A DNA stretch of 64,000 nt from Gemmatimonadales bacterium (GCA_036397455.1 DASWIX010000079.1:196037-260036); one strand, 5' to 3'. Positions 6,503 through 59,100 are shown, counted from the stretch's first letter. Numbers and translations: made by a program. Notes: generated from the letters alone by a model not told the origin.

Positions 6503-6513
6503 CTGATAGCCCA

Positions 6514-38359: not shown

Positions 38360-38572
38360 TTACCGCGAGGCGAGGTCGAGGACTCCGGCAACCGCCAACC
38401 CGCCCACCAGGAGAAAGCCCAGGCCGAGCACTACATAGAATACCCTCGTCCCGGTTTGGCCCATGATCTTGATGAAGAACTGCGCCTTGCGGTGCTCCAT
38501 GAAGAACGGCCACCGCATGACCGCACCCGCAATCGCGAACGCACCGATGCCGATCAGAAACCACCCTGCCAT
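38360..38572 (-). CDS. Small two-TM membrane protein (70 aa, hypothetical)
   Basis: MAGWFLIGIGAFAIAGAV...VFYVVLGLGFLLVGGLAVAGVL gives two clear hydrophobic helices. No family recognised. Confidence 0.5.
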   Translation of the reverse strand: MAGWFLIGIGAFAIAGAVMRWPFFMEHRKAQFFIKIMGQTGTRVFYVVLGLGFLLVGGLAVAGVLDLASR

Positions 38573-41553: not shown

Positions 41554-42888
41554 ATGGGCATACATTGTGCGCTCCGCCTGCGTGGTGCGGACGGCCGTTT
41601 GTTCCGACGTTTCTCTGGGGGTGGCGTGGCGGGTCGACTGAAGCGGGTGGCGGGCAGTGCGGTCGTGTACGTGGGAATCGTCCTGGGCACGCTGGTGCTG
41701 CTCGATCTGACGCTGATCGTATTCGGTTTGTTCCCGCCGACCCACGATTATGGCGATCCCGAGGTGGGGTGGGTGGCAGCGCGGCCGTCGGGCGAGATGC
41801 GTGAAGACCGGTGCATGGAGTTCTCCACGCGCGAGATCTTCCGGATTTCGCGGAACGAGGACGCACTGCGCACCTCCCGCTCGGCCGAACGGCTGCGCCA
41901 GGACGACGACCTGTTCAAGGTCGCCGTCACGGGCGACTCGCAGACGGAACTGTGCGCTCCCAATCCGCTGACCCACTTCGGCGTTCTGGAACGTGAACTG
42001 ACGGCCTCGGGTATGCCGAGCGCGGCGTACGCCTACGGCGCCGGCAAGTACGCGCCACTGCAGGCGTACCTGGCGGTCATGCGTGCGTCGCGCGGTTACG
42101 CGACGGACGCGCTCGTGTTGAACTTCTATACCGGCAACGATTTCCTCGACATGCTCCGGGTCGACGATCGACCGCACTTCGCGCCCGCGGGCGACGGCTA
42201 CACGATCGCCGCGCCCGTCTGGTTTCAACTTGACGACCCGACGGTGCGGCGTCGCAGCCGCGTACTCTATGCCCTCCGGACGGTCCTGAAGCGCACGGGG
42301 CTGCACACGGTGTTGGTGCGCGTGCGGTATCATCGCGCCACGGCCGCGGCGCAGGGGAAAGGGCTGCGCTCGGTGCTGGCGTACATGAACGACCTGAGGA
42401 AGTCGGCGTCGCCGGAGGTGGGGTATGCCGCGGCACTCACGGCGCAGATGCTCAACCAGCAACTCTTCTTTCATCGGTTTCCGGACAGCAAGGCCGAGAG
42501 CCTGCGGCGCGTCAGGGCGTTGTTCGAACTCGTGCGGCGCGAACATCCCGAGATGGTCTTGGTACTGAGTCCGCTGCCATCATACCAACTCGTGCGGGAA
42601 CAACCCGTCGACGACATCCTGCTCCGTACCATCGAACGGCTCCCGATCACCTACGAATCGGGCGTCCGGGAGGAAGGCGAGTTGTATGAAGCGCTCCGCG
42701 TCCTGGCCGCCCAAACCGGCTGGCGGTTCGCCGACAATCTGGCGCCGCTCCGGGCCTACGCGGGAACCGAACGGTTGTTCAACGACTTTGATTATCATTA
42801 CCTGCCGCCGGCCAGCGATATCATCGGTCGGGCCCAGGCCGCGGCCTTCGCGACACCGTCCGACACGCCGCCCGACCCCTCCCGCTGA
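41554..42888 (+). CDS. Membrane-anchored SGNH/GDSL-like (AlgJ/DltD-like) protein
   Basis: The start is trimmed to ATG 41554 (or 41536). The first 200 codons of the track ORF are antisense to the Wzy_C gene. One TM (AVVYVGIVLGTLVLLDLTLIVFGL). Block I is VAVTGDSQTE, followed by LNFYTGNDFLDM. The C-terminus is ERLFNDFDYHYLPPA, aligned by eye to the fusion's SPFDHHPNARGH. Confidence 0.6.
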   Translation: MGIHCALRLRGADGRLFRRFSGGGVAGRLKRVAGSAVVYVGIVLGTLVLLDLTLIVFGLFPPTHDYGDPEVGWVAARPSGEMREDRCMEFSTREIFRISRNEDALRTSRSAERLRQDDDLFKVAVTGDSQTELCAPNPLTHFGVLERELTASGMPSAAYAYGAGKYAPLQAYLAVMRASRGYATDALVLNFYTGNDFLDMLRVDDRPHFAPAGDGYTIAAPVWFQLDDPTVRRRSRVLYALRTVLKRTGLHTVLVRVRYHRATAAAQGKGLRSVLAYMNDLRKSASPEVGYAAALTAQMLNQQLFFHRFPDSKAESLRRVRALFELVRREHPEMVLVLSPLPSYQLVREQPVDDILLRTIERLPITYESGVREEGELYEALRVLAAQTGWRFADNLAPLRAYAGTERLFNDFDYHYLPPASDIIGRAQAAAFATPSDTPPDPSR

Positions 42889-42995: not shown

Positions 42996-44537
42996 ATGAC
43001 GATGTCGAAGCGAGTCGAGCAGGTCACGGATCACGAACCACCGGAACGCGCTGGCGCGGTCGATCGGCGCGCGTTCGTCAAGACGGCTGGTGGTGTCGTT
43101 GCAACCATCGCGTTCGGGACCGCCTGTGGCGACGACACGCCAAACGGACCCAACGGCGATACGGGCACGCTCTCCGTGATCATCTCCGGTCTCGCCGGTG
43201 CAACCGCGGGATCGGTGACCGTCACGCTACCCGATTCCACCGATCCGGGTATCACGGTCACACTGCAGGATGCCAACAGCTCCGGCGTCAGCGTCGGAAC
43301 CGCGACGGGTGTCCCCGTCGGAACGTACCGGATCACCTACGATCCGCCGGCGGGGCACGTGATCACGAGCGGCGGCGACTTCCAGGACGTGACCGTCGTC
43401 GCCAATCAGGCCGCGAGCGCCGAATTCACCGTGTCGGCGTCGGGCACGCTTGAGGTGGAGGTCACGGGAATCGATGCGAGCGCGACGACCGCCGGCACGG
43501 TGGAGCTGACCGACACCGACGGAATCCCCACCGGAGTAGCCGTGCCGCTGCCCGCGCCGGCCGCAGGCGAGAGTCTCGCGTCCGTGAGTCACCCCGCCGG
43601 GACGGTTCGCGTCACGGTCATACCACCGCCGGGCCACATTCACGGCGGCGCGGCGTTTCAGGATATCGTCGTGACCGCGGGCGGTACGGTACGCGCGTCG
43701 TTCGCGGTGCAGGTCGTTGTCCAGCCGGGCCTCATCTTTGCCTCGGCCTGGGCAACCGCGCTGGGTACATCGAACGCGGCCCGTCTCGATACGGACAGCG
43801 CGACACCGTGGGCCGCGGCGGGCGGCAACGGCGACGCCGAGATTATCGATGCGACCGGACGGGATTTCCCGACCGCCAACTGTCTCCGCTCGGCGTACGA
43901 GGCGGACGCAACCAATACCAGCGTCAAGGCGTTTTCGATCGCGGCCGACGGCATTCTCCATGACAGTCCGTTCTGGCCCGACTTGGCGGTGGGCGGCCAC
44001 CTCTATCACCGCGCGTATCTCCGCAACGAACTTCCGAATTATGTCGCGGGGTTTGGTGCCAACCACCCGTGGAACGGCGAGACGACGTGGAACTGGAAAT
44101 TCGACAACCGTAATGATGGGATGTTCGAACTGATCTTCAACATCCAGGACAAAACGGTATCGCCCAACGTCGTGGCAAACTTCGCCTGCCAGACGTTGCT
44201 CACCAAGAACACGACGTACCGCTTGGAACACCACGTCGTCCGGATCGCGGATGTCGGGGGCGAGGAGCACTGCAACATCGACCTGCGCGTCTATGACGCG
44301 GCCGGCGTCCTGCTGTTCGACAACGACGATTTCCGAAACCAGCTTGGCGCGAACGAACTCCTCAGTACGGTCCCGGCGCTGCGCTTCTCGGTCGCACAGT
44401 CCAGCAACATGAAGATCGGCTGCAACGGACCGGGCGGGAGTGGGTGGCCGGGACCAAGCGGGAACATCTTCTGGGCTGGAGTCGCCGCGTCACTGGCTGA
44501 CTGGTGCGGCCCCTATGTGCCCGGGGAAAGCGCCTGA
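42996..44537 (+). CDS. Tat-signal lipoprotein with two tandem Ig-like domains and a jelly-roll-like C-terminal domain (hypothetical)
   Basis: Twin-arginine motif DRRAFVKTAGG followed by the lipobox-like FGTACG. Internal duplication (GTLSVIISG...GTYRITYDPPAGHVITSGGDFQDVTVVANQAASAEFTV versus GTLEVEVTG...GTVRVTVIPPPGHIHGGAAFQDIVVTAGGTVRASFAV). The family of the C-terminal ~270 aa is not recognised. Confidence 0.6.
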   Translation: MTMSKRVEQVTDHEPPERAGAVDRRAFVKTAGGVVATIAFGTACGDDTPNGPNGDTGTLSVIISGLAGATAGSVTVTLPDSTDPGITVTLQDANSSGVSVGTATGVPVGTYRITYDPPAGHVITSGGDFQDVTVVANQAASAEFTVSASGTLEVEVTGIDASATTAGTVELTDTDGIPTGVAVPLPAPAAGESLASVSHPAGTVRVTVIPPPGHIHGGAAFQDIVVTAGGTVRASFAVQVVVQPGLIFASAWATALGTSNAARLDTDSATPWAAAGGNGDAEIIDATGRDFPTANCLRSAYEADATNTSVKAFSIAADGILHDSPFWPDLAVGGHLYHRAYLRNELPNYVAGFGANHPWNGETTWNWKFDNRNDGMFELIFNIQDKTVSPNVVANFACQTLLTKNTTYRLEHHVVRIADVGGEEHCNIDLRVYDAAGVLLFDNDDFRNQLGANELLSTVPALRFSVAQSSNMKIGCNGPGGSGWPGPSGNIFWAGVAASLADWCGPYVPGESA

Positions 44538-45547: not shown

Positions 45548-46903
45548 ATGCACAGCGAAGAAGCCGATTTCGACGTCGGGATCATCGGAGGCGGACCCGC
45601 AGGCGCGAGCATGGCGGCCTACTTGGCCAAGGCGGGTGCCAAATGCGTCGTCTTCGAGCGTGACCTCTTCCCGCGGCCCCATGTAGGCGAGTCCCTGGTT
45701 CCCTCCTCGACGCGGGTCTTCAAGGATCTGGATTTTCTCGCGGTCATGGAGCGGGAGAGGTTCCCGCACAAGTTCGGCGCGGTGTGGACGGCCGCGGGTG
45801 GGCGCCGTGAATTCGACCACGATTGGCTGGGTATGGCGCCCGACGTGCGCGCCGATATCCGGTTCGAGGAACGCGACCAGCCGGGCGTGGATCAGAACTA
45901 CACGTACCACGTCGATCGCGGCAAGTTCGACAACCTGCTGCTGCAACACGCCAACGGATTCGGAGCCGAGGTCTTCCAAGGCGTCGCCGTACGCGACGTG
46001 CGACTGGAGGCGGGCGAGCTGCCGCAAATCTGTTTCGCGTTGGGCCAGCGCCAGGTCCACTGCAAGGTCCGGGTGGTCGTCGACTGCAGCGGGCGCCGCA
46101 CCTTCCTGGGCAATCGACTGAAACTCCGAATCAAGGATCCGGTCTTCGATCAGTACGCGATCCACGCGTGGTTCGAAGGGTACGACCGCACGGCCGCCAT
46201 GAAGAAAGGGTCCGGGAAGGGCGACTATATCTACGTGCACTTCCTGCCGATCACGAACAGCTGGATCTGGCAGATCCCGATCACCGATTCGGTGACGAGC
46301 ATCGGCGTCGTCACCCAGCGGAAGCACTTCGCCAAGCGGCGCGAGGCGCGCGAAGGGTTCTTCTGGGAGAGCATCGCCAGCCGACCCGAGCTGCACGATG
46401 CCCTCCGCAAGGCCGAACAGGTTCGGCCCTTCACCGAAGAGGGCGACTACAGCTACGCCATGCAGCAGATCACGGGCGACGCCTGGTTGATGGTCGGCGA
46501 CTCCGGGCGCTTCGTCGACCCCATCTTCTCCACTGGCGTCAGCATCGCGCTCAACAGCTCCCGCTTCGCGCATAAGGATATCCTGCGCGCACTCGAGACG
46601 GGCGACACCAGCCGGACCTCGTTCCGCGAGTACGAGGGAACGCTACGGCGTGGCACCAGGAACTGGTACAACTTCATTTCGGTCTACTACCGCCTGAACG
46701 TGCTGTTCACGGCGTTCATCACCGACCCGCGTTATCGGCTGGACGTGCTCAAACTGTTACAGGGCGACGTCTACGAGGAGCAGGAACCGGAAGTGCTCGC
46801 GCGGATGCGGGAAATCGTGACCACGGTCGAGAACACACCCAGTCACCCGTGGCATCAGCTTCTGGGCGACATGACGGCGAACGCGTTCAATCCGGCCTTC
46901 TGA
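45548..46903 (+). CDS. Flavin-dependent halogenase-like FAD enzyme (non-tryptophan, CndH/PltA-like type)
   Basis: The start is at ATG 45548. The track ORF starts at 45365. FAD fold DVGIIGGGPAGASMAAYLAKAG. FPRPHVGESLVP. Lys candidate in FPHKFGAVW. Halogenase signature W-x-W-x-IP (NSWIWQIPI) and F-x-D-P-x-F-S-x-G (RFVDPIFSTGVS). Confidence 0.7.
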   Translation: MHSEEADFDVGIIGGGPAGASMAAYLAKAGAKCVVFERDLFPRPHVGESLVPSSTRVFKDLDFLAVMERERFPHKFGAVWTAAGGRREFDHDWLGMAPDVRADIRFEERDQPGVDQNYTYHVDRGKFDNLLLQHANGFGAEVFQGVAVRDVRLEAGELPQICFALGQRQVHCKVRVVVDCSGRRTFLGNRLKLRIKDPVFDQYAIHAWFEGYDRTAAMKKGSGKGDYIYVHFLPITNSWIWQIPITDSVTSIGVVTQRKHFAKRREAREGFFWESIASRPELHDALRKAEQVRPFTEEGDYSYAMQQITGDAWLMVGDSGRFVDPIFSTGVSIALNSSRFAHKDILRALETGDTSRTSFREYEGTLRRGTRNWYNFISVYYRLNVLFTAFITDPRYRLDVLKLLQGDVYEEQEPEVLARMREIVTTVENTPSHPWHQLLGDMTANAFNPAF

Positions 46904-47176
46904 CCGGCCCGCGCAGGATCGAGGAATTCCACGAGATCCAGTCTGGCGGCCGCGTAGCCCGCCGCCCCGCTCGGCATCGTCGCGCGTCCGCAACATCGGG
47001 GTGGCTTGGGTGGCCGCAATCGCATAGGGGACAACCGGACGAGTGTCGTCCTCTTGCGGGCATGGGTCTTGAGGGGATTGTGCGGCCGTCACAGCAGCAG
47101 CCGGATCCGCCTCGGAAGGTAGCGAGCCCGATGCGCGTGGTCCACATCCTCGCACGGCAAATCCCGACCGGAGACT

Positions 47177-49972
47177 ATGCCAGCCCCTGACACACCAGAA
47201 ACCGCACCCGGACTCGAGGGAGTCACAGCCCGTTCGGTCCGCCTTCTCCCATGGCAACGCGCGCTCGCAATCTGCCTGGTGCTCGGGGGCAGCGCGGCAA
47301 TCCTCGTTGCCGCCGCCGGCGACGTAATCGGCCTCGGCGGCAGTCCGGGCATCGGCACATTCCAGGTGATGCTCGGGCTGCTGGGGCTTGCGGTGGTGTG
47401 GCAGGGGCTCGCCTTCCCCTCGGCGCCGGAAGAGGTGGTCGGGCACTGGCAATCGCTCCTGCTGCGAATCGATGCCGGCCGGATGCGCCGCTTCGCCGTC
47501 ATCTTCACGCAACTCGTGCTGCTGGTCGTGGCGGTCCGAGTCTTCCAAATCGAGAGTCCGGCATTCTATCAGCAGATCATCCCGCTCGCCGCCTTCGGTT
47601 TCATCGTTCACCATCTGCTGCCGCAGCGCCACCGGCTGCCGTTCTTCGCCGCCCTGTCGATGGGCGGGGTGCTCATCGTCGCCGGGACGGCCAACACCCT
47701 CTGGATACTCGGCCTCGCGATCGTGCTCATCGCCATCTGCCATCTCCCCATCCCGTTCTCGCTCCGCCTTGCGGGACTGGTGGTGATCGGCGTAACGCTG
47801 GGCCTTATGCGTTCCGGCGTGATCCTGACGCCGTGGTCGACGGCCGTATGGCCCATCCTGGCGTCGCTCATGATGTTCCGCCTCGTGCTCTACGTGTACC
47901 ACATCCGGCACACCGCGGAAAAGCCGGCGCTCGCCTGGACGCTGTCGTATTTCTTCCTCCTACCCAACGTGGTCTTCCCGCTCTTTCCGGTCGTCGATTT
48001 CAGCACGTTCCGCCGCACCTACTACGACCACGACCCGTATCTGATCTACCAGCGTGGGTTCGACTGGATTCTGCGTGGTTGTACGCACCTGCTGCTCTAC
48101 CGCGTGATCTACCAGTATTTCACGATCGCGCCGGAGGACGTCGAAACGCTCGGACAGCTCGTCCACTACATGGTCACGACGTTTCTGCTGTATTTGAAGG
48201 TCTCCGGACAGTTTCACGTCATCGTGGGTCTGCTGCACCTGTTCGGATTCCGATTACCCGAAACCAACCACCTGTACTACCTGGCCTCGAGCTTCTCGGA
48301 TGCGTGGCGCCGGATCAACATCTATTGGAAAGACTTCATGACGAAGGTGGTGTTCTACCCCACGTATCTGCGCTTGAAGGGCAGGGGCGATCGCGTGGCA
48401 TTGGTCGGGGCGACGACGGCGGTGTTCGCCGTCACGTGGTTCCTCCACGCGTACCAATGGTATTGGCTGCTGGGCAGCTGGCTCATCGCGTCCACGGACA
48501 TCATGTTCTGGGTGGTGTTGGGGGCCTTCCTCGCCATCAACGCGCTACGGGAGTCCAAACGGGGACGCACGAGGATCATCGGGACGTGGTCCGGCACGCC
48601 GCGTGAGGTGATCGCGCTGGGGCTCCGAACGACCTTGACGTTCCTCACTATCGCGCTCCTCTGGTCGTTGTGGAACAGCGCGACGCTTGGCGACTGGTTC
48701 AACTTGCTGACCGTCCGCATCGGAGGCCCGGGTGATTTCGCGCTCCTCGCGGCGGTCGTGGTGCTGATCGGCGGAGCGGCGGTACACGCCGCGCGCCGCG
48801 GGCGCGCGCCCGGAGCCACCGAGCGCGCCTGGGCGGCGGGGAACGCACCGGCGATGCGTGCCTGGCCGTCGGTCGGCGGGCTCGCCGCGCTGTGCCTCGC
48901 GGGGATCCCCGGCATCGGCCCCTTCGCTGGTCCGGAGGCGGAACGGTTCTTGAGCATGCTGCGTGCACCGGAGCTCAGCACGCGGGACGTCGCCCTCATG
49001 GAGCGCGGCTATTACGAAAACCTCAACGGCGTCGTCGTGCGGAACAGCGAACTCTGGGAGTTGTACGCGCAGCGGGCGGCCCGGGGCGCGACCATCTGGA
49101 CCACCGACCTCGTGCGCCAGCGCGACGACTTCCTCGGCACGGAGCTGCGTCCGCTGCATACGGAGTTCCAGCCCGGCATCGTCTTCAGTACCAACCGATG
49201 GGGCATGCGGGACAAGGACTACGAGCCGGCGCGACCGGCCAATGCCTACCGAATCGCGTTGCTGGGCGCGTCCCATGTGGCCGGCGACGGCGTGAGTGAC
49301 GGTCAGACCTTCGAGACACTCGTCGAGAACCGGCTGAACCAGGAGTACGGCCCCCGCGTCGGACGCCTGTTTGAGATCCTCAACTTCGGTGTCGGGGCGT
49401 ACAGCATCCCGCAGCAACTCTTGACACTCGACCGCGTGTTCTCGTTCGACCCCGATGCCCTGTACTTCGTCGCGACGCCCGGCGACGGCGACCAGGCGGC
49501 GCTCCACCTCGTGAAGCAGATCAGGCGGGACGTTCGCCCGCCGTTCCCCTACCTCGACAGCCTGCTCACCGGTTCCGGAGTGACGCCCCACATGGCGGAG
49601 ACCGAAGCGCTGCAACGCCTCGCGCCATACCAGGACGACATCGTCCGCTGGGGGCTGTCCGCGCTGGCCGCCGCATGCGCCGCGCGAGACGTGAAGGCCG
49701 TGTGGGTCTACCTGTACCTGCCCGAAAGCCGGGACGACGCGGCCGACGCGGCGCGGCTCGAGACGATGGCCCGCGCGGCGGGATTCACCACGCTCAACCT
49801 GCGCGACGTCTACGGCGACGGAGACCTCTCCGCGTTCTGGGCGTCACCCTTCGACCACCACCCGAACGCGCGGGGCCACCAGGTGATCGCCGAGCGATTG
49901 TTCGCCGAGCTCACCGCGCGCGACAACCTGGACCTGCCGGTAGGCGCGGTCCCGGAGACACCCACTCGATGA
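47177..49972 (+). CDS. MBOAT-family membrane O-acyltransferase (DltB/AlgI-like) fused to a C-terminal DltD/AlgJ-like SGNH domain
   Basis: 931 aa. MBOAT blocks LSYFFLLPNVVFPLFPVVDF, SGQFHVIVGLLHLFGFRLPETNHLYYLASSFSDAWRRINIYWKDFM and AVTWFLHAYQWYWLLGSW. After further TM helices comes a ~370-aa domain with RIALLGASHVAGDG, LNFGVGAYS and SPFDHHPNARGH (SGNH-like blocks I, II and V). The stop overlaps the carrier-protein ATG. Confidence 0.8.
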   Translation: MPAPDTPETAPGLEGVTARSVRLLPWQRALAICLVLGGSAAILVAAAGDVIGLGGSPGIGTFQVMLGLLGLAVVWQGLAFPSAPEEVVGHWQSLLLRIDAGRMRRFAVIFTQLVLLVVAVRVFQIESPAFYQQIIPLAAFGFIVHHLLPQRHRLPFFAALSMGGVLIVAGTANTLWILGLAIVLIAICHLPIPFSLRLAGLVVIGVTLGLMRSGVILTPWSTAVWPILASLMMFRLVLYVYHIRHTAEKPALAWTLSYFFLLPNVVFPLFPVVDFSTFRRTYYDHDPYLIYQRGFDWILRGCTHLLLYRVIYQYFTIAPEDVETLGQLVHYMVTTFLLYLKVSGQFHVIVGLLHLFGFRLPETNHLYYLASSFSDAWRRINIYWKDFMTKVVFYPTYLRLKGRGDRVALVGATTAVFAVTWFLHAYQWYWLLGSWLIASTDIMFWVVLGAFLAINALRESKRGRTRIIGTWSGTPREVIALGLRTTLTFLTIALLWSLWNSATLGDWFNLLTVRIGGPGDFALLAAVVVLIGGAAVHAARRGRAPGATERAWAAGNAPAMRAWPSVGGLAALCLAGIPGIGPFAGPEAERFLSMLRAPELSTRDVALMERGYYENLNGVVVRNSELWELYAQRAARGATIWTTDLVRQRDDFLGTELRPLHTEFQPGIVFSTNRWGMRDKDYEPARPANAYRIALLGASHVAGDGVSDGQTFETLVENRLNQEYGPRVGRLFEILNFGVGAYSIPQQLLTLDRVFSFDPDALYFVATPGDGDQAALHLVKQIRRDVRPPFPYLDSLLTGSGVTPHMAETEALQRLAPYQDDIVRWGLSALAAACAARDVKAVWVYLYLPESRDDAADAARLETMARAAGFTTLNLRDVYGDGDLSAFWASPFDHHPNARGHQVIAERLFAELTARDNLDLPVGAVPETPTR

Positions 49973-50223
49973 CCACCGACCAGATCATGCAGACCGTGCG
50001 GAACTACGTCGCGCAGGAGTTCCTCCGGCCCGAAGACCGCGCTGGCCTGGCAGCGGATACGCCACTCGTCACCGGCGGCATCCTCGATTCGCTCGCCTCG
50101 CTGAACCTGGTGGGGTTCCTCGAGAACGAATACGGGATCGAGATTCCGGCGCACGAGGTGACCATCGACAACCTCGACACCCTGGCGACTATCGTGGCGC
50201 TGGTCGAATCCAAGCGGCCATGA
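49969..50223 (+). CDS. Acyl/peptidyl carrier protein, DltC-like
   Basis: 84 aa, embedded in the track ORF 49675..50223. Phosphopantetheine site GGILDSLASLNLVGFLENEYGIEIP...DTLATIV, which parallels the DltC pattern G-LDS....L...EN.F.I..P. ATGA overlaps on both sides (49969-49972 and 50220-50223). Confidence 0.85.
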   Translation: MTTDQIMQTVRNYVAQEFLRPEDRAGLAADTPLVTGGILDSLASLNLVGFLENEYGIEIPAHEVTIDNLDTLATIVALVESKRP

Positions 50224-51938
50224 GCCGCCAACCGACGGGAGCCACCGTGACCCCGCAACGCGGCGATTCGCTCCAAACCCGGTTCATGAAACAACTGGCC
50301 GACCGGCCCGGCCCGGCGGTCGCGTTCATGTCAGGAAGAGGCGAGTTGTCCTGGCGCACCCGCGAGGAGTTCTTCGCGCAGGCGTCCGGATCGGCACGGG
50401 TGCTTCAGGAACAAGGGCTGCGCCCGGGTGACGCATGCCTACTCGTGCTCCACAGCGATGAAACTTGCGCCACCGCGCTCGCGGCGACACTGCTGGCCGG
50501 CGCTCTTCCGCTCCTGATCGCGCCGCCGACGCTCCAGGGGACACGCACGAGTCTCACGGATATCCTGGTGCGCACCGCGCGACGGACCCGCGCGCGCATG
50601 GCGGTGCTGGACGAGTCCATTCCGGCAATGCACGACGGCCTGCCGGGCGCGTCGGCGCGGATCGTGCCGGGACGAACGATCCTTCAGGCGAAACCGGCGG
50701 ACATTGCGCCCGTGCTCCCCGCGTCGGACTCGCTCGCGGCACTGCAACTCACGTCCGGCACGACCGGATTCCCACGCGTCTGTGTTTGGAAGCAGCGGGG
50801 CGTGCTGGCTGCGCTCGACGGCATGGCGGAGGCGATGGGGCTCAGGGATGACGACGTGTGCTTCAACTGGACGCCGCTGTATCACGACATGGGATTGGTG
50901 AACAACTTCCTCTTGTGCATGGTGACCGGCGTCCCGATGGTGATGCTGATGCCGCAAGACTTCGTCAAGCGGCCGGCGCTCTGGCTTCAGGGACTCCACG
51001 CATCCGGCGCCACCACCACCTGGTCACCGAACTTCGGATACGCGCTCGCCGCCAAAGTGGTCAAGGATGAGGAACTGGAGGGTGTGCGATTGGACGGCGT
51101 GCGCACGTTCTGGAACGCCGCCGAGCGGATTCACCTGGAGACCGTGCTGGCGTTCCGCGACCGCTTCATCGCGCACGGGCTCCGTCCGGGCGCGTTGAAG
51201 ACGAACTTCGGCTGCGCCGAGAATGTCGGTGGCGCAACGTTCACCGAGCTAGACGGCGAGATCCGTTATGAGGTGGTCGACCGGGAGGCGATGCAGCGGC
51301 GTCGGATGGCGATCCCCCTGGCGGCCGGAACGGACACCACGGACGCGGTTACGTTGGTCGGTGCCGGTCAGGCGGCGCCCGGATTATCGATCGCCATCCT
51401 ATCCCGCACCGGCAAAGAGCTGGGCGACGGACATGTCGGCGAGGTCGCATTGAAGACCCCGTCGCGTATGGTGGGATATCTCAAGGACGCCGCCGCGACG
51501 CGCCGGGCTGTCTACGGGCCGTATCTCCGCACCGGCGACATGGGCTACCGCCGGGACGGCGAGCTGTACTGGGTGGGGCGCGTGCGCGAACGGATCACGG
51601 TTCGGGGCAAGAAGATAGACCCGAGCGATCTCGAGCCGACGCTGTTCAAGATCCCCGAGCTCCGACCGGGCTGCTTCGCCGCGTTCGGAGTGGACAATAC
51701 AGAGCAAGGGACGCAGCACATCGTGGTGGTGAGCGAGCTCAGGGACGCAACCGCCGTGAACGCCGACGACGTGCGCCGCCGCGTGCGCGCGATGGTCACG
51801 CTGGACCTCGCGGTGCCGGTCGGGGATGTCGTGCTGGTACCCAAGGGCACCCTGACCAAGACGTCGAGCGGCAAACGACGCCACCGGCACTTCCGCAACC
51901 TCTACGTCGATGGACAGCTGGACGCGCTGGCGGTCTAG
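50220..51938 (+). CDS. Fatty acyl-AMP ligase (FAAL-type adenylating enzyme)
   Basis: 572 aa. A3 motif LQLTSGTTGFPRV. FAAL-typical NWTPLYHDMGLVN and WSPNFGYALA. Also YLRTGDMGY, GRVRERITVRGKKIDPSDLE and GTLTKTSSGKRRH. Confidence 0.9.
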   Translation: MSRQPTGATVTPQRGDSLQTRFMKQLADRPGPAVAFMSGRGELSWRTREEFFAQASGSARVLQEQGLRPGDACLLVLHSDETCATALAATLLAGALPLLIAPPTLQGTRTSLTDILVRTARRTRARMAVLDESIPAMHDGLPGASARIVPGRTILQAKPADIAPVLPASDSLAALQLTSGTTGFPRVCVWKQRGVLAALDGMAEAMGLRDDDVCFNWTPLYHDMGLVNNFLLCMVTGVPMVMLMPQDFVKRPALWLQGLHASGATTTWSPNFGYALAAKVVKDEELEGVRLDGVRTFWNAAERIHLETVLAFRDRFIAHGLRPGALKTNFGCAENVGGATFTELDGEIRYEVVDREAMQRRRMAIPLAAGTDTTDAVTLVGAGQAAPGLSIAILSRTGKELGDGHVGEVALKTPSRMVGYLKDAAATRRAVYGPYLRTGDMGYRRDGELYWVGRVRERITVRGKKIDPSDLEPTLFKIPELRPGCFAAFGVDNTEQGTQHIVVVSELRDATAVNADDVRRRVRAMVTLDLAVPVGDVVLVPKGTLTKTSSGKRRHRHFRNLYVDGQLDALAV

Positions 51939-52108
51939 TCGGCGTCACCTCCCGGCACGACGAGGGCCATCGCGAGCCCGGCACCCCGCAACACGTCGAC
52001 CATACGTTGAGTGCCTTGAGGGCTCGGATTGTATGCCTGCCCCCGCCGATCGGCCTACTTCACGTCCGCGGTTTCCGTTATCTTCGGGCGTTCAACTTCA
52101 CCGAGTGA

Positions 52109-52906
52109 TTGCACTTGCCGGCCAATCTCAGGAAGACCTACGAGCAATCGAGCATCCACGACGGATGGGAATCGGTCTACCGCGGTAACCCCCGGCAAGA
52201 TCGGCTCAACGACGCCCTCATGGACCGCATTGTCGCCGAGGTGGGCGCACCGCCCGATGGCCTGTTCCTTGACGCGGGGTGCGGCGTGGGCGACCAGGCC
52301 ATCCGCATCGCCAAACGCGGCTACCGCTGCATGGGCGTCGACATCTCCTCCACGATCCTCGCCGACGCCCGGCGCCGCGTCGATGAGCTGCACCTCGACG
52401 ATCGCGTGTCGTTCTCCTGCCAGGGCCTGGAAGATCTCGGGTTCGACGCGGTGTTCGACGCGGTGCACTGCCGCGGCGTGCTGATGCACATCCCCGACTG
52501 GGAACGCGCCCTCGCGTCGCTCTGCCGCGCGGTGAAACCGGGCGGCGCCCTGGTCATCGTGGAAACCAATACCCAAGGCCTCGAGCTGGCCCTGGTGAAG
52601 TTGGTGCGCACCGTACAGCACCGGAAATCGGAAATGCGGGAAACACCGGGCGGCGTGGAGTTCTGGTCCACCCACAACGACGAACCGTTCGTCGTGCGCG
52701 TGACTCGCCAGAGCCGCATCGTCGAGCTGATGCGCGACAACGGCGTACGCGCCGAACGCCGCCTCCCCACCGAGTTCATCGATCCCCACCGCTTCGGTGG
52801 CGGGTTCCTGCGGAATACGATGATCCAAGTCAACAGGCTCTACCTTGGCCTGGGACTCCCGGCCCGCTTCACCTCCAGCAACCTGGTCATCGGCCGCAAG
52901 GCATAG
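52109..52906 (+). CDS. Class I SAM-dependent methyltransferase
   Basis: Motif I LFLDAGCGVGDQAIRIAKRG. Post-I MGVDIS. Also FDAVHCRGVLMHIPD and VKPGGALVIVE. TTG start at 52109, 170 nt after the FAAL stop. Confidence 0.8.
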   Translation: MHLPANLRKTYEQSSIHDGWESVYRGNPRQDRLNDALMDRIVAEVGAPPDGLFLDAGCGVGDQAIRIAKRGYRCMGVDISSTILADARRRVDELHLDDRVSFSCQGLEDLGFDAVFDAVHCRGVLMHIPDWERALASLCRAVKPGGALVIVETNTQGLELALVKLVRTVQHRKSEMRETPGGVEFWSTHNDEPFVVRVTRQSRIVELMRDNGVRAERRLPTEFIDPHRFGGGFLRNTMIQVNRLYLGLGLPARFTSSNLVIGRKA

Positions 52907-53196: not shown

Positions 53197-56100
53197 CTAC
53201 CCGAGTACGACGTGGATCCGGTGTTCGAGACCGTCGTCGGACAGCGGCACGAGTGTGCCCACCGACAGGGGGATCCCGTCGAGACTGATGCTGGACACCC
53301 CGCGACAGACGCCATGCGGATTCTCGACCGCAATCCGATGGACCGTGCGGCCATGACGGTAGACGATCTCGAAGCTCCGCCACGCGCGCGGGATGCACGG
53401 ATCGATGGCGAGCGTTGAGCCGCGCTTGCGGAAGCCGAGGATGGATTCGAGCCCCGCCCGGTAGAGCCACCCCGCCGCACCGGTGTACCAGGTCCAGCCG
53501 CCCCGCCCGACGTGCTCGGGCGCGGAGTAGATGTCTGCGGCGACCACGTAGGGCTCCACCTTGTATCGGTGGGCGCTTGCGCGACGGCTTGCATGATGAA
53601 TGGGATTGAGCAGGCCGAAGAGATTGAAGCTCGTGTCGCCCTCGCCCAACTGCGCCCAGGCGATGACCGACCAGACGGCGGCGTGGGTGTACTGCCCGCC
53701 GTTCTCCCGGATACCGGGCAGGTATCCCTTGATGTAGCCGGGATCCTGCGCCGTGTCGTCGAACGGTGGGGAGAGCAGCAGCACCAGCCGGTCGTCCTGC
53801 CGGACGAGCCGCCGGTTCACCGATTCCATGGCCTGGCGCGCGCGGTCCGGGTCACCCACGCCGGACAGCACCGCCCAGGACTGGGCGATCGAGTCGATCT
53901 GGCACTCGTCGTTCTGCGCCGATCCGAGCGGCGTGCCGTCGTCGCAGAAGGCCCGCTTGTACCATGCCCCGTCCCAGCCTTCCTGCTCCAGCGCCGTCCG
54001 CAGGGCCGTGGCCGCCTGCCGCCAACGCGCCGCGCGTGCTGCTTCCGCGCGGCCATCCGCGAGTCCGGCAAACGCGGTCAGATTCGCGTGGAGAAACCAG
54101 CCCAGCCACACGCTTTCGCCGCGACCCTCCCGGCCGACGCGGTTCATCCCGTCGTTCCAGTCGCCCGCGCCGATCAAGGGGAGTCCATGAGTGCCCACGT
54201 CGAGACTTCGGTCGAGTGCCCGCGCGCAATGCTCGAACAGGGTCGCGCGGTCCTCGGAGACCCGGGGCTCGAAGTAGGATTCCTGCTCGTGCGCCGCGAG
54301 GGTCGGACCGCGCAGCCAGGGGAGCGTTTCGTCGAGCACGCTCCGGTCCCCCGTCACCGACATGTACTGCCCCACCGCGTACGGCAGCCACAGGAGGTCG
54401 TCGGAGATCCGCGTCCGTACCCCCCGGCCGGTGGGGGGATGCCACCAATGCTGGACGTCTCCCTCCGGGAACTGCCGGGCGGCCGCCCGCAGGATGTGCG
54501 CGCGCGCAATGTCGGGTCGCGCCACCGTCAGCGCGATGACATCCTGGAGCTGGTCGCGGAAGCCATAGGCCCCGCCGGACTGGTAGAAGGCGGAGCGGGA
54601 CCACAGGCGACAGGAGAGCGTCTGATAGAGCAGCCAGCGATTGAGCAGCAGATCCATCGCCGCGTCCGGCGTCCGGACCTGCACCGTGCCGAGCACGGCG
54701 TCCCAGCCCTCCTGGACCTGCCGAAGCAGCGCGTCGCAATCCTCCCGGCGAAAGCGCTCGATCAGCGCGCGCGCCTGGGCGGGACTCTCTTCCTGTCCGA
54801 GCAGGAACAGCACGTCGGCGCGCTGCCCGGGCCGCAGCTCCACTTCCGTCTGCAGCGCGGCACAGGGGTCCAGGGTGGCGCCGGTCTTTCCCGAGAGCTG
54901 AGCGCCCCGCTCGAGCGAGGCGGGGTGGTCGAGGCTCGCATTCCGGCCCAGAAACTCCAGGCGGTCACAGGTCCAGGACGTGGGGCGCCTCCCCAGGTCA
55001 GCGAAGGCGACTCGACTCGCGAACACGCCGTTCCAGGCGTTGCGCGCGAACGTCGCGCCCGTGTCGTCATCGATCTCGGTGACCACGTACGGCGCGGCGT
55101 CGCTGCGCGTGACGCCCAGCACCCACTCCACATAGGCCGTGACCGACAGGCGACGGCTGCGACCGGACCGATTCACGAGCGTGAGGCGCGACACCTTGAC
55201 CGGAGCGTCCGGCGCCACGAACTGCACCAGGTCCAGGGCGATGCCGTGCGACGAGTGCTCGAAGCGACTGTATCCCTGACCGTGCCGGACGACATAGGGC
55301 GGGCCTTCCTCGCGGATCGGCAGACAGGTGGGCCCCCAGATCAGGCCGCTGTCCAGATCGCGTACGTAAAACGTCTCGCCCGGCGTGTCGCTGACCGGGT
55401 CGTTCGACCACGGTGTCAGCCGGTTCTCCCGGCTGTTGACGGACCAGGTGTAGCCGGAGCCCGATTCCGACACCTGGAATCCGAAATCCGGATTCGCCAC
55501 GACGTTGATCCAGGGTGCCGGGGTCCACTGTCCCCGGCCCAGCACGGTGACATACTCGCGTCCGTCCCGCGAGAATCCTCCCAAGCCGTTGAAGTAGTCG
55601 AGATCGAGGGTCGGGGGGGACCCCGGGTCCGCGTCCTCGCGCGGCGCGCGGACCGGGCGCGGCACCGGGCCCGGCCGCGAGCGGTCCACACGAATCACCT
55701 GCTCGGATAGGGTGCCCTTGCCCGCCACAATCACCACGCGCGCCGCCGAACGCAGCAGGACCAGGTCCTCGGGAGGCAGCAGGTCCTCCCGCAGCACGAA
55801 GGCGCTCCCGCGTACCCCGTCCCCGCCGGTACTGAGCACGGACTGCGTCGCCCGCACCATGCCTTCAAAGGCGTTCTGGAGATCCTGAGCGTAGGAGGCG
55901 CCCTTCGCATTCAGGATCACCAGGTCGCAGGGAATGCCCTTGAGGTGCCAGTACTCGTGCGCCCGGAGGAGCTGTCTCGCGACGGTCCGTTCCTCGTCAC
56001 GCTCCACCCGCACGACGGCGATCGGGAGATCACCGGAGATGCCGTGGGCCCAGAGGCCGGACGCCCCCCGACGATTGGCGGCCAGCTCCGCGGGATGGGT

Positions 56101-59100
56101 GCGCAACGTGCGATCGCTGTAGAGCAGACGATTGGCCAGGCGCTGGAAGAGATGCGCCTCGTCCTGCGTGATCTGGAGGTGATGCAGCTGGACCTGGGCG
56201 TACATCCAGGCCAGGGCGCTCTCCCGCTCGAACGTGTCCGACTGGCGGTACTTCTCCGCGATCTCGAGGGCTGCCTCGCGCGACGGCGCCACCAGCGTCG
56301 TGAAGACGAGACGAATCGTCCCGCCGGCCGGGATCGCCACGCGGTACCGGAGACTCACGATGGGGTCCAGCACCGTCCCCACGGTGTTCGTAAGGGGCCG
56401 GTCCTCGATCACCGAGACCGGTGTCCGCACGCCCCGGCCCCGGCCCAGAAAGCGGGCGCGGTCGCTCTCGTACTGACAGGTGCCGACACGCTCGCCTTCG
56501 ATCGCGGCGACGTGCGCCAGCCACGGCTGTTGTTCCTCGGCGGAGCGCGGGCGTCGGGTCGCCAGCAGGGTCTCCAGCTCGGGAACGAATTCGGTTTCCA
56601 CGAAGAGGTTCGAAAAGGCAGGATGCGCCTCGTCCGCGGCCTGCGGCGCCAGGGCGACTTCCGCATAGCTCGTGAAATCGATCGTCCGATCACGGGCTTC
56701 GAGGTTGGTCACGGTCAATTGGCGCAGCTCGGCGTCGTCTTCGGGGGAGACCACGATCTCGAGCGTGACGGCCAGGGACCGGTCGCGCTGCATGATCTTG
56801 GCCCGGTCCTCGGCATACACCACGTTGTACCGGTCCGTCTCGGTGCCGCTGGGCTGGAACCCGGCCGACCAGACGTCGCCGGTCTTCGCGTCCCGCAGGA
56901 ACACGAAGGTGCCCCAGCAGTCCCGGGTCGTGTCCTCACGCCACCGGGTGACGGCGAGGTTGCGCCACCGGCTGAAGCCGGCCCCCGCCGCCGTCACCAT
57001 GACGTGGTACCGGCCGTTCGAGAGGAGATGGGTGCGCGGCGGGATGTCGTGCGGCGACTCGAACCGTCGCAGGGTCGGGGGCACGAGGTCACGAACGTGG
57101 GCCGCCTGGACTTCCTCGCCGCGTGGTCGCGTCACGGCGACCGCGCGAGGTGTACGCTCCTGCAGCAACAGTTCCGCCGCCTGGATCATCGGGTGCGCGT
57201 GAAAGCGTCGCTGGGTGCGGCCGCCGTGCACGACGTTGCCGAGGGAGACGATCGTCATCCCCTGGTGGTGCGCCATGTAGGCCCGGATCACCGCGACCCG
57301 TTCATCTTCGGGCAGTCGCGTCGGCGTGAAGTCCAGCGCCTCGTAGAGCCCGTAGGCGCCGCGTGCCCCGGCGGCGCGGAGGCGGGCGAGGTTGATGACG
57401 GCGGCTTTGGGGTCCAGCATGGCCGCGAGCGCGGTGGCGTAGGGAGCCACCACCACGTCCTCGAAGAGCCCGCGCTTGAGGCCCAGGCCGGGCACGCCGA
57501 AATCCGAGTACTGATACGTGAGGTGGACATCGCGGACGTTGTAGGCGGACTCCGACACGCCCCAGGGAACTCCGCGCTCGGCTCCATAGCGTACCTGGCG
57601 ACCCACCACGAGCCGGCAGGTGAGATCCAGCAGGCCGCCCGTGGGCTGCCGCATCACCAGCAGCGGCATCAGGTATTCGAACATCGATCCCGACCAGGAC
57701 ACCAGCGCCGCCCCGCGCCCCACCGGCGTGAGGGACCGGCCGAGCAGGAACCAGTGGCGTGGCGAGACATCGCCCTTGGCGATGGCAAAGAAACTCGCCA
57801 GCCGCGCCTCCGAGGCCAGCAGGTCATAGCAACTGGGGTCGAGGGTGTTGTCGGCCATCCGGAAGCCGATCGCAAACAGCTTGCGCGAGGAATCGAAGAG
57901 GAATCGGAAATCCATGGCCTGGGCCATCTGCTCGGCCCGGAGGGCGACGGCCGCGAGGCGATGCTCGAGCGTCGTCGTCCCAACCGCCGCCCCGTCCTCG
58001 GCCTGGAGCATCGCCTGGTCTCGCGCGTGACTCCGGACAGTGTCCCGGACGGCGGTTGCCCAGGCCAGGACTTCCGGGCCGGATTCGTGCTCCGCGGGGT
58101 GTGACAGCGTGCGGACGATGTCCAGCAGGTTCTCCGCACGACCTTCCATCTGCGCGAGGCGGGATCCCCATTCGGGCGTCGAGGAAGGGGGGGCCTCCAG
58201 CCCAGCCGCCATCGCGTCCAGGGCCTCCCGCACCTGCGCCTCCGTGACCATCTCGCTGCGCGTGCCGACCTGCGATCGCTCGACCGCATCGCGCACCGGA
58301 TCGAGCGCATCGCGGATCCCATCCAGGACCCGGGATCCCCACAGCGGCTCCCGGGCGAGCTGGCGGCATCCCTGCGCCAGGGCGATGAGATGACCCGCGA
58401 GATTCCCGCCGTCCACGGTGGAGATGTAGAGCGGCTCCAGCGGCCGGAGGTCCCGGGTGTCGTACCAGTTGAAGAAGTGACCATGGAACCGACGCAGGGC
58501 GGTCATCGTCTTCAGCGTGGCTTCGAGCCGCTGCAGCATGTCCGCGGTCCCGATCCACCCGAAGTCGCGGGCGACCATGGTACTCAGGAGGTACAGCCCC
58601 ATGTTGGTGGGTGAGGTGCGGTGGGCGACCGTCGGCTCGGGATCCTCCTGGAAGTTGTCGGGTGGGAGGTCGTGCTCCTCCTCGGTCACGAAGGTCTCGA
58701 AGAACCGCCAGGTGTGCCGGGCGATGCGCCGCAACGCGCGCGTCTCCGCGGGCGACAGGCGTCGTCGTTCGTCGAACGGCCGCGGGACACTCAGCCGCCA
58801 CGCCAGGAGGGGCGCCAGGCCCCAGAGGGCGATCAGCGGTGCCGCCACCGGCCACGCCCCCGGCCTGATCGCGACGACCCCGGCGCCGATGCCCGCGGTG
58901 AGCACGAGGCTCCACCGAAAGTGCCAGTAGAAGGCACGCAGCGTCAGATCCACGCCGTATCCGGCCTGCGCGGCGGGGACCCACTCGAGCAGATGTCGCC
59001 TGGTGACGTACAGTCGTCCGAGTGTACGCACGACGGCATCCGCCATGAGCTGGGCCCGCTGCGCCAGCGTCGCGACGGCCAGCAGCACCTGCAGCCACGC

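Follow-up and report, generated by a model that had tools for sequence, protein, structure and literature searches.

Organization of the locus

The window analyzed here is a stretch of 64,000 nucleotides (nt) from a Gemmatimonadales bacterium (GCA_036397455.1, DASWIX010000079.1:196037-260036), and the genes of interest occupy its positions 45,548 to 52,906. Three of them encode a 931-amino-acid (aa) protein that, according to its predicted structure, is at the fold level a fusion between an MBOAT acyltransferase and an SGNH domain (hereafter the fusion), a small carrier protein and an adenylating enzyme of the fatty acyl-AMP ligase (FAAL) type (Table 1). Together they apparently form a Dlt-like acylation module that depends on a carrier and has at its center an MBOAT::SGNH fusion of an uncharacterized family, with a halogenase gene upstream and a methyltransferase gene downstream.

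A first-pass annotation, made from the sequence by a model, had described the three genes as co-directional and coupled by ATGA overlaps, and both overlaps were recovered where it had placed them: the stop codon of the fusion gene overlaps the start of the carrier gene at 49969-49972, and that of the carrier gene overlaps the start of the ligase gene at 50220-50223. The coordinates given here were taken from gene calls made independently on a public assembly of this contig (offset +37176), which agree with the earlier calls for these genes; the methyltransferase gene starts at 52115 in the public call and at a TTG codon at 52109 in the first-pass one. The halogenase gene ends 273 nt upstream of the fusion gene on the same strand, with no terminator predicted in between, and 170-176 nt separate the ligase gene from the methyltransferase gene.

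The window has a guanine-cytosine (GC) content of about 67%, and the values over 44-54 kb (0.647-0.671) are as elsewhere in it, with no GC signal of recent horizontal transfer. The search for a sigma-70-like promoter, for a plus-strand terminator between the module genes and for a credible Rfam match gave nothing; the missing promoter and terminator signals are uninformative because the host belongs to a non-model phylum with 67% GC. The only Rfam match at E ≤ 0.1 in 44-54 kb, mir-1538 at 47330-47388 (+), scored 26.9 bits (gathering score 78) and falls inside a coding sequence, and was dismissed as a chance match.

Table 1. Features of the acylation module and of its surroundings, in window coordinates or in residues of the fusion
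Feature	Position	Strand	Evidence or remark
PltA-type FADH2-dependent halogenase (451 aa)	45548-46903	+	Pfam Trp_halogenase 99.6 bits, PDB matches
MBOAT::SGNH fusion acyltransferase (931 aa), predicted	47177-49972	+	AlphaFold2 model, Foldseek, family alignments
Membrane MBOAT core of the fusion, predicted	about residues 100-500		
Two further transmembrane helices of the fusion, predicted	about residues 519-541 and 559-576		
Periplasmic SGNH domain of the fusion, predicted	about residues 640-915		flexible linker before it
His424 codon, presumed catalytic MBOAT histidine (TWFLHAYQW)	48446-48448	+	invariant in 90/90
GYYE motif, Gly611-Tyr612-Tyr613-Glu614, periplasmic linker	49007-49018	+	invariant in 90/90
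Ser699 codon, SGNH block I nucleophile (LLGAS)	49271-49273	+	invariant in 90/90
Asn736 codon, SGNH partner residue	49382-49384	+	invariant in 90/90
Asp893 codon	49853-49855	+	invariant in 87/87
His895 codon	49859-49861	+	invariant in 87/87
Type II carrier protein (84 aa)	49969-50223	+	PP-binding 27.7 bits (cut-off 20.8)
FAAL-type adenylating enzyme (572 aa)	50220-51938	+	AMP-binding 125 bits; FAAL-type matches in NCBIfam and PDB
Class I S-adenosylmethionine (SAM) methyltransferase (263 aa)	52115-52906	+	Methyltransf_11 75.5 bits
GH94 cyclic-glucan-synthase-like gene (cgs), convergent with the methyltransferase gene	53197-61932	-	GH94, glycoamylase and GH94 beta-supersandwich domains
Imm17-family open reading frame (70 aa), putative immunity protein	38360-38572	-	
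VanZ-domain protein (390 aa)	38807-39979	-	
Wzy_C gene	40021-41436	-	
Membrane-anchored (N-terminal) protein (444 aa) with SGNH-like motifs VTGDSQ, YTGND and DYH	41554-42888	+	reading of the translation
Secreted protein (511 aa) with twin-arginine-like signal RRAFVKTAGG	43002-44537	+	

The fusion protein

The 931-aa protein, recovered at 100% identity (P0001) from a metagenome-assembled Gemmatimonadales genome with a contig identical to the window, carries at NCBI the name 'SGNH/GDSL hydrolase family protein', and the NCBIfam search returned no family model for it. Its earlier description as an MBOAT fused to an SGNH-like domain is supported by an AlphaFold2 model computed from an alignment of 24 homologues (alignment A1; pLDDT 79.5, pTM 0.66) and compared with the PDB by Foldseek. 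The best match of the model is DltB (8jem_A, E 2.8e-6, target-normalised TM 0.66), and the next matches of the N-terminal half are 6bug_C, HHAT, PORCN and LPCAT3. The C-terminal third resembles many SGNH esterases (5jd3, 5tic, 3rjt), its match to DltD being marginal (6pfx, E 0.19). Likewise, many homologues are labelled 'DltB (MBOAT superfamily)' by the COG-based annotation of JGI. For the SGNH half, the Pfam model Lipase_GDSL_2 gave 24.3 bits over residues 696-903, below its gathering score of 32.9.

Residue conservation was measured in a family alignment of 90 sequences. The presumed catalytic and universally conserved MBOAT histidine is His424, putatively equivalent to His336 of DltB; Q427 and W430 are likewise invariant in 90/90 sequences, and a WRRINIYWKDF block upstream of His424 is invariant in alignment A1. 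The C-terminal half has the Ser, Asn and Asp/His residues of blocks I, III and V which, together with the fold, define the SGNH superfamily, block V reading D-x-H rather than D-x-x-H. At the 75 alignment positions where the same residue is shared by 97% or more of the 90 sequences, the fusion of the window retains the family residue throughout.

Positively charged loops at residues 463-474 (KRGRTR...) and 542-556 (RRGRAP...), taken together with the helices of the model and with hydropathy, suggest that helix 475-499 ends at the outer face and that the linker and the SGNH domain are extracytoplasmic. The GYYE motif lies in this linker, 35 residues after the last helix and within the sole long low-confidence segment of the model (607-638). 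Longer members of the family (mainly about 970 aa; P0044, P0049, P0053 and others) have a duplicated N-terminal transmembrane hairpin of the type AADLL..GxPGxGxxQ (A1 columns ~97-150).

Spread of the family and conserved partners

Relatives of the fusion are numerous, with 1,888 matches among the scored candidates of a 90%-clustered protein set and, at E ≤ 1e-30, 1,579 representatives of clusters at 50% identity; the best 150 of these are mostly full-length (~830-960 aa). They occur in at least 511 GTDB species-level genomes of at least 10 phyla. The loci come from Gemmatimonadota, Gamma- and Betaproteobacteria (Accumulibacter, Rubrivivax, Ideonella, Limnobacter, Woeseia; Burkholderiales), Alphaproteobacteria, Chloroflexota, Acidobacteriota, Planctomycetota, Verrucomicrobiota, Calditrichota, Bacteroidota, Binatia and Eisenbacteria.

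Co-conservation was counted in the 45 loci, out of 80 genome loci retrieved, that have at least 4 kb of flanking sequence on both sides. A carrier gene stands within 5 kb of the fusion gene in 44 of them, and in 35 the two are at most 100 bp apart on the same strand, which fits a carrier-fed, Dlt-like acyl export. An adenylation enzyme of ~520 aa is found near the fusion in 34 loci and a gene of the acyl-CoA dehydrogenase family in 36; carrier, adenylation enzyme and dehydrogenase occur together in 33. The commonest gene order, fusion, carrier, adenylation enzyme and dehydrogenase, was seen in 18/48 loci, and this canonical cassette is also that of Pseudothauera rhizosphaerae CC-YHH848 (L054), the sole cultured strain among the 80 loci. 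A FAAL, on the contrary, is found near the fusion in a single one of the 45 (L001). The neighborhood comparison called for by the first-pass annotation thus revealed that a carrier and an adenylating enzyme are indeed co-conserved with the fusion, but that the FAAL is not.

The canonical partners resemble enzymes of pyrrole biosynthesis on carriers. The adenylation enzyme of the relatives passes the model for amino-acid adenylation domains, TIGR01733 (370-386 bits, cut-off 317), and reaches ~300 bits on the DltA models, below their cut-offs of 476 and 560; its best single-domain match in the PDB is the prolyl-carrier ligase PltF (6o6e, 331.5 bits), the others scoring at most 255 and DltA ~220. 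The dehydrogenase matches the prolyl-acyl carrier protein dehydrogenase AnaB (4irn, 468 bits), 6cxt_B (329.5 bits) and an L-prolyl-peptidyl carrier protein dehydrogenase (5zw0, 323 bits); in NCBIfam it scores 440-450 bits on PigA (cut-off 500) and 409-421 bits on RedW (cut-off 650), the next model being acryloyl-CoA reductase (~310 bits). The carriers, as that of the window, are closest to the carrier chain of 6cxt, to PigG, to one DltC and to PltL. Because adenylation enzyme, dehydrogenase and carrier each best match the cassette that converts proline into a carrier-bound pyrrole-2-carboxyl thioester, the canonical cargo of the family is probably a proline-derived pyrrole-2-carboxyl group or an AnaB-like dehydroprolyl group, halogenated in some loci. 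The predicted specificity for proline is based on the whole-protein similarity of adenylation domain, carrier and dehydrogenase, and, as adenylation enzyme and dehydrogenase stay below equivalog cut-offs, it expresses similarity and not membership. The earlier proposal that the logic of Dlt had been rebuilt here with a FAAL therefore stands as regards the dependence on a carrier, but is revised as regards its origin, the module being better seen as derived from a pyrrolyl/prolyl-carrier export system.

Several loci have two or three tandem paralogues of the fusion that share one set of carrier, adenylation enzyme and dehydrogenase (L006, L007, L011, L039, L043, L057, L063, L083), and these paralogues may serve several acceptors from one donor. 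In some Chloroflexota loci (L018, 13971-17179; L019; L056, 14511-15150), the cassette is followed downstream, beside the halogenase, by a second adenylation enzyme (375 bits on TIGR03098, the model of an exosortase-associated ligase) and by one or two additional carriers, which suggests two carrier systems in one locus.

Carrier, ligase and halogenase of the window

The carrier of the module is the only carrier-like open reading frame of the 64-kb window. It has a DSL motif with the phosphopantetheine site at Ser41 (codon 50089-50091), and its PDB matches are the carrier chain 6cxt_A (40.5 bits), PigG (32.2), a DltC (32.1) and PltL (30.1). The entry 6cxt is, as we assume, the carrier domain of Bmp1 bound to Bmp3, from the bromopyrrole pathway. 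On the DltC model of NCBIfam the carrier reaches 31.3 bits for a cut-off of 68 and does not class as a DltC equivalog. The first-pass description of the carrier as DltC-like was corrected, its similarity to DltC being no greater than that to PigG or PltL. The best NCBIfam carrier model, 'ACP_for_OlsHI' (88.7 bits, cut-off 130), was read as generic similarity among type II carriers; a link to OlsHI was dropped because the paper on OlsH/OlsI deals with a GH3-like enzyme and an alpha/beta hydrolase, reports OlsH as independent of an acyl carrier protein (ACP) and mentions no MBOAT.

The adenylating enzyme displays the three motifs quoted in the first-pass annotation (LQLTSGTTG at residue 175, TPLYHDMGL at 218 and SPNFGYA at 269). 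Its top NCBIfam models are PRK09192 (298 bits, cut-off 600), PRK07768, PRK12476, PRK05850, MbtM and FadD32, and its top PDB matches 3pbk (183.7 bits), then 7r7g, 6ulw, 3kxw and FadD23/32. In the alignment to the Pfam AMP-binding model, 394 residues of the ligase correspond to 378 positions of the model, a difference that an insertion could explain. By similarity, then, the ligase is of the FAAL type, as first proposed, all top NCBIfam and PDB matches being fatty acyl-AMP ligases, though those to NCBIfam lie below curated cut-offs, and the gene of its predicted cognate carrier overlaps its start. Stand-alone FAALs usually adjoin their cognate ACP, and some of them take aromatic acids (PMC11837247).

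A FAAL next to the fusion was seen only in the window and in two other loci. In L001, an exosortase and exopolysaccharide (EPS) locus, the fusion and the FAAL are 64 and 70% identical to those of the window; in L086, the C-terminus of the fusion, the carrier and the FAAL are 63, 72 and 73% identical. A further locus (L093) encodes a fusion 71% identical to that of the window and an 84-aa carrier whose gene overlaps it (ATGA), and the contig ends directly after the carrier gene. Orthologues of the FAAL at 70-75% identity are few and their visible contexts have the same fusion and carrier pair upstream, FAAL relatives at 52-62% identity are found in broad and varied contexts (L087, L088), and the nearest fusion relatives without a FAAL are at most ~54% identical and have the canonical set of partners. 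Because the close FAAL orthologues follow a fusion and its carrier, while the other relatives of the fusion reach ~54% identity at most and are canonical, a FAAL has replaced the pair of adenylation enzyme and dehydrogenase in a small subclade of Gemmatimonadota.

Molybdenum-enzyme genes after the FAAL in L086 were considered as a hint of aromatic chemistry and dropped, being CoxL/CODH-like and uninformative. In a Candidatus Rokubacteria genome (L088, GCA_016200085.1), a FAAL 57% identical to that of the window belongs to a cluster resembling type II fatty acid synthases and polyketide synthases (PKS), with three ketosynthases, two carriers, a transglutaminase-core protein, two proteins of a phosphodiesterase family, a halogenase-like flavoprotein and sulfate-activation genes; its product may be a halogenated or sulfated lipid.

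The halogenase, a flavin-dependent enzyme of the PltA type (variant B), is a close homologue of PltA, ChlB4 and Mpy16. Its PDB matches are PltA (5dbj, 572.9 bits, E 4e-171), ChlB4 (7fco, 564.6 bits) and 5buk (553.4 bits), the next one reaching only 137 bits. The motifs GGGPAG (GxGxxG) and WIWQIP (WxWxIP) and the FAD motif are intact (GDSGRFVDPIFSTG), and the presumed catalytic lysine, in its FPHKFG, aligns with the lysine of FPKKFG in PltA. Halogenases of the PltA type have as substrates pyrrolyl or aryl groups bound to carrier proteins, and the score of 573 bits to PltA bears out the first-pass classification of the enzyme as one that acts on carrier-tethered substrates.

In 9 of the 45 well-flanked loci a halogenase with a WxWxIP motif lies at most 10 kb from the fusion gene, and in another Gemmatimonadales genome assembled from a metagenome (L092, halogenases at 3962-6660) a halogenase 74% identical to that of the window and a second halogenase lie beside dehydrogenase and fusion genes. 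Because halogenases adjoin the family in these loci, it is plausible that the enzyme tailors the acyl group on the carrier, although this role would not be obligate; that the halogenase of the window is functionally linked to the module we judge slightly better than an even call.

PltA-like halogenases (66-82% identity to that of the window) abound in metagenomes of soil and sediment, in Gemmatimonadota, Acidobacteriota, Myxococcota and Dormibacteraeota. There they are often paired with a second, more distant type (L089 and L090, 7608-10350 in L089; L091; L092), and frequently have no carrier gene nearby.

Neighboring genes and possible acceptor

The methyltransferase had been suggested as another tailoring enzyme of the tethered acyl group. 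It is generic, with no specific NCBIfam family, and near the relatives of the fusion the methyltransferase matches are only weak (20-38 bits) and scattered, none being found in L001 or L086; it is not co-conserved with the module, and this suggestion finds no support. Cyclic beta-1,2-glucan, named earlier as a candidate acceptor, fared no better. The product of the convergent cgs gene (~2,881-2,911 aa) has domains consistent with a cyclic beta-1,2-glucan synthase, but cgs adjoins no fusion homologue examined, and this glucan as acceptor is left without support.

Around the module in L001-L003 are found glycosyltransferases, Wzy_C, the exosortase genes EpsH/EpsI, Wzz/GNVR, ABC/Wzt and extra SGNH/AlgX-like genes. 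Among the 53 immediate same-strand neighbors in 48 loci, extra SGNH proteins are the most frequent (five), before four GT4, three PMT_2, three BNR and one alginate-export porin, a modest enrichment, and 115 random open reading frames taken within ±9 kb of fusion homologues are mostly unrelated housekeeping genes. The four-gene cassette behaves as a self-contained unit, and our best guess for the acceptor is an extracytoplasmic glycan.

Between Wzy_C and the module of the window, the 444-aa protein with SGNH-like motifs has no Pfam match even at E ≤ 1; extra SGNH/AlgX-like genes similarly adjoin the cassette in L001 and L003, and the 444-aa protein may be an accessory or second transferase. In the 511-aa protein with the twin-arginine-like signal, a C-terminal domain comes after repeated Ig-like segments that contain much Thr, Gly and Val; no family was detected for this protein. 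The Imm17 and VanZ genes, which adjoin Wzy_C, have no obvious relation to the module.

Proposed mechanism and alternative explanations

From the gene structure, folds, conserved residues and co-conservation described above, we infer all chemical steps, the cargo and the acceptor of the module, the mechanism of Dlt and PatA serving as template for the steps (PMC12148441). With moderate confidence, the three overlapping genes are taken to form a carrier-protein-dependent acyl-export system in which a group loaded by the FAAL would be halogenated on the carrier before export and then esterified to the envelope. The FAAL-type ligase would use ATP to convert a carboxylic acid into a thioester on the phosphopantetheine of Ser41 of the carrier. 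The PltA-type halogenase would then halogenate this acyl group on the carrier before export, which is the least secure step. The loaded carrier would dock on the cytoplasmic face of the MBOAT half, where His424 would catalyze acyl transfer to the outer face. There, the first acceptor would most likely be a tyrosine of GYYE (Tyr612 or Tyr613), in the role of the FxYxxF tyrosine of DltX and PatA. Finally, Ser699, with Asn736, Asp893 and His895, would take the acyl group and form an ester with a hydroxyl group of an envelope molecule outside the cytoplasm, a glycan being the most likely.

A broader reading of the whole family is proposed tentatively, as a possibility we would not yet back. The family might be a second widespread carrier-dependent envelope acylation besides Dlt, in which a pyrrole-2-carboxyl group, assembled from proline by PltF/PltE-like enzymes on a type II carrier and at times chlorinated by PltA-like ones, would be exported by the fusion via GYYE and esterified to an extracytoplasmic glycan, the window containing a FAAL-loaded and halogenase-associated variant.

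Several observations weigh against the mechanism proposed for the module. The MBOAT half has no Pfam (PF03062) or NCBIfam match at E ≤ 0.01, and the 24-sequence profile of the family, run against PDB sequences, recovered no MBOAT, DltB included; the MBOAT assignment depends on the predicted structure and on COG-type labels. Among the domain models put forward for checking in the first-pass annotation, PP-binding, AMP-binding and Trp_halogenase were matched, but MBOAT was not and SGNH remained below threshold. The acyl-shuttle motif FxYxxF occurs nowhere in the 931 residues, and the site equivalent to that of PatA and AlgI reads LWSLW, with a Ser kept in only 74/90 sequences and no conserved nucleophile. 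That Tyr612 or Tyr613 is the candidate acyl-shuttle residue replacing it is a guess, made because GYYE is invariant, is located in a flexible linker, and FxYxxF is absent. On the side of the cargo, the 64 kb of the window contain no open reading frame for a prolyl ligase or a prolyl-carrier dehydrogenase, and hence no pyrrolyl cassette. Homology to FAALs would lead one to expect aliphatic fatty acids, and not substrates of PltA-type halogenases; the fatty-acid cargo first proposed does follow from this homology, but sits awkwardly with a functional halogenase of that type. Halogenase homologues at 76-81% identity (L089-L091) lack both a carrier and the module in the surrounding 9 kb, and L001 has the FAAL triad without a halogenase. 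Neither neighborhood census (the 115 random open reading frames and the 53 neighbors) revealed a universal glycan partner, and nearly all loci of the family are metagenome-assembled genomes.

Some of these points are shared with an alternative explanation, namely that an ordinary fatty acid of medium or long chain is loaded by the FAAL and used by the fusion to O-acylate an envelope polymer or lipid, halogenase and methyltransferase being unrelated. Indeed, the ligase has its best matches without exception among genuine fatty acyl-AMP ligases, the L001 triad is without halogenase or methyltransferase, the nearest halogenase homologues often stand alone, and the fusion structurally matches HHAT and PORCN, eukaryotic MBOATs that carry fatty acyl groups. 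We nonetheless consider such plain lipidation unlikely, if well worth keeping in mind. A same-strand PltA-type halogenase 273 nt upstream is unlikely to be a coincidence in a family that is repeatedly halogenase-associated, the family residues kept at 75/75 near-invariant positions argue against a radically larger cargo, and the carrier is of the prolyl/pyrrolyl type. It is improbable, in turn, that the carrier-bound acyl group ends in a diffusible or lipid-linked small molecule made by a secondary-metabolite cluster. The partner enzymes (PltA/PltF/PltE-like proteins and FAALs) are classic natural-product enzymes and the censuses show no obligatory polysaccharide genes; but no PKS, nonribosomal peptide synthetase (NRPS) condensation or thioesterase genes accompany the cassette, its recurring neighbors are glycosyltransferases, PMT_2, extra SGNH, Wzy_C, exosortase genes and an alginate-export porin, and the characterized bacterial MBOAT/SGNH pairs all acylate an extracytoplasmic polymer (PMC12148441). 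Outside Dlt, these MBOAT/SGNH systems all use acyl-CoA (PMC12148441), so that the fusion could also be fed in this manner, like PatA and AlgI, with carrier and FAAL serving another pathway and their adjacency being incidental. This we disfavor strongly and hold to be very improbable, as the carrier is kept beside the fusion in 44/45 loci from at least 10 phyla (35 loci having it ≤ 100 bp away on the same strand), ATGA overlaps join the genes in the window and in L093, and a loader is nearly always present even though its type varies between an adenylation domain and a FAAL.

Should the predicted chemistry of carrier-fed export and envelope esterification be true, natural-product building blocks (pyrrolyl, halogenated and FAAL-activated acyl groups) would decorate the cell surface, and the envelope would thereby be modified in a manner of a new class. 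Bacterial surfaces would then undergo a previously unrecognized 'pyrrolylation' or halo-acylation in hundreds of environmental species, including Gemmatimonadota, Chloroflexota and Accumulibacter, a wastewater organism. Such a modification could affect surface charge and hydrophobicity, the properties of biofilms and flocs, recognition by phages and predators, and the formation of organohalogens in the environment. The predicted catalytic residues H424, Y612/Y613 and S699 offer handles on the system.

Comparison with known systems

No description of such a system was found in the searchable full-text literature, in agreement with the first-pass statement that no characterized equivalent is known; a passing mention in a 2023 paper on the Dlt mechanism is possible. 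In a 2025 Journal of Biological Chemistry paper on PatAB, bacterial MBOAT and SGNH partners are separate proteins, and a carrier is used only in Dlt, the rest relying on acyl-CoA (PMC12148441). The family departs from this view twice, by its fused MBOAT and SGNH domains and by a carrier beyond Dlt; it is also devoid of FxYxxF.

The module resembles Dlt in that an adenylating enzyme would load a small carrier, an MBOAT would take the acyl group across the membrane and an SGNH-type domain would perform the final transfer, DltB being moreover the best structural match of the N-terminal half of the fusion. However, the loader is a FAAL (a PltF-like adenylation domain in the relatives) and not DltA, the predicted cargo is not D-alanine, MBOAT and SGNH domains form one polypeptide with no separate DltD, DltX and FxYxxF are missing, and the host is diderm. 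On the models for a DltA-type ligase and a DltC equivalog, the module falls outside Dlt. Gemmatimonadales are diderm bacteria with no known teichoic acids.

Acylation by PatA/PatB (peptidoglycan), AlgI/AlgJ/AlgX (alginate) and WssH/WssI (cellulose) similarly combines an MBOAT and a periplasmic SGNH protein acting on an envelope glycan of diderms, and the MBOATs share with the fusion two extra transmembrane helices after a DltB-like core. These systems are fed by acetyl-CoA without a carrier and consist of separate proteins, their MBOAT ending in FxYxxF (PMC12148441). This acyl-shuttle hexapeptide is located at the outer end of the two extra helices in PatA and AlgI, and at the C-terminus of DltX (PMC12148441). 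The module, on the contrary, has a co-conserved carrier, fused domains and LWSLW at the FxYxxF site. In its overall architecture it agrees with OatA and OafA, AT3-SGNH fusions with a relay from acyl-Tyr to acyl-Ser (PMC12148441), in which a membrane domain that translocates acyl groups is likewise fused to an extracytoplasmic SGNH domain; yet the membrane domain of the module is predicted to be an MBOAT and not an AT3 domain, and its donor is predicted to be a carrier protein instead of acetyl-CoA.

With the pyrrolyl cassettes of pyoluteorin (PltF/PltL/PltE/PltA), prodigiosin (PigI/PigG/PigA), undecylprodigiosin (RedM/RedO/RedW) and the bromopyrroles (Bmp), the window shares the types of halogenase and carrier, and the loci of the relatives (33 of 45) those of ligase and dehydrogenase. 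The pyrrolyl group of those pathways goes to a cytoplasmic PKS or condensation enzyme, whereas the only downstream enzyme of the module is the MBOAT::SGNH fusion. In clorobiocin and coumermycin (CloN/CouN) and in chlorothricin (ChlB2-ChlB6), an aromatic acyl group built on a carrier and halogenated and/or methylated is esterified to a sugar hydroxyl, and ChlB4 is among the three best matches of the halogenase of the window. These acyltransferases are cytoplasmic and soluble and act on small-molecule glycosides, whereas the acceptor of the module is predicted to be extracytoplasmic. Finally, JamA and its ACP in jamaicamide synthesis also associate a stand-alone FAAL with an adjacent cognate carrier on which the acyl group is modified while tethered (PMC11837247); there, the product feeds a PKS/NRPS line, whereas that of the module would feed the MBOAT::SGNH fusion.

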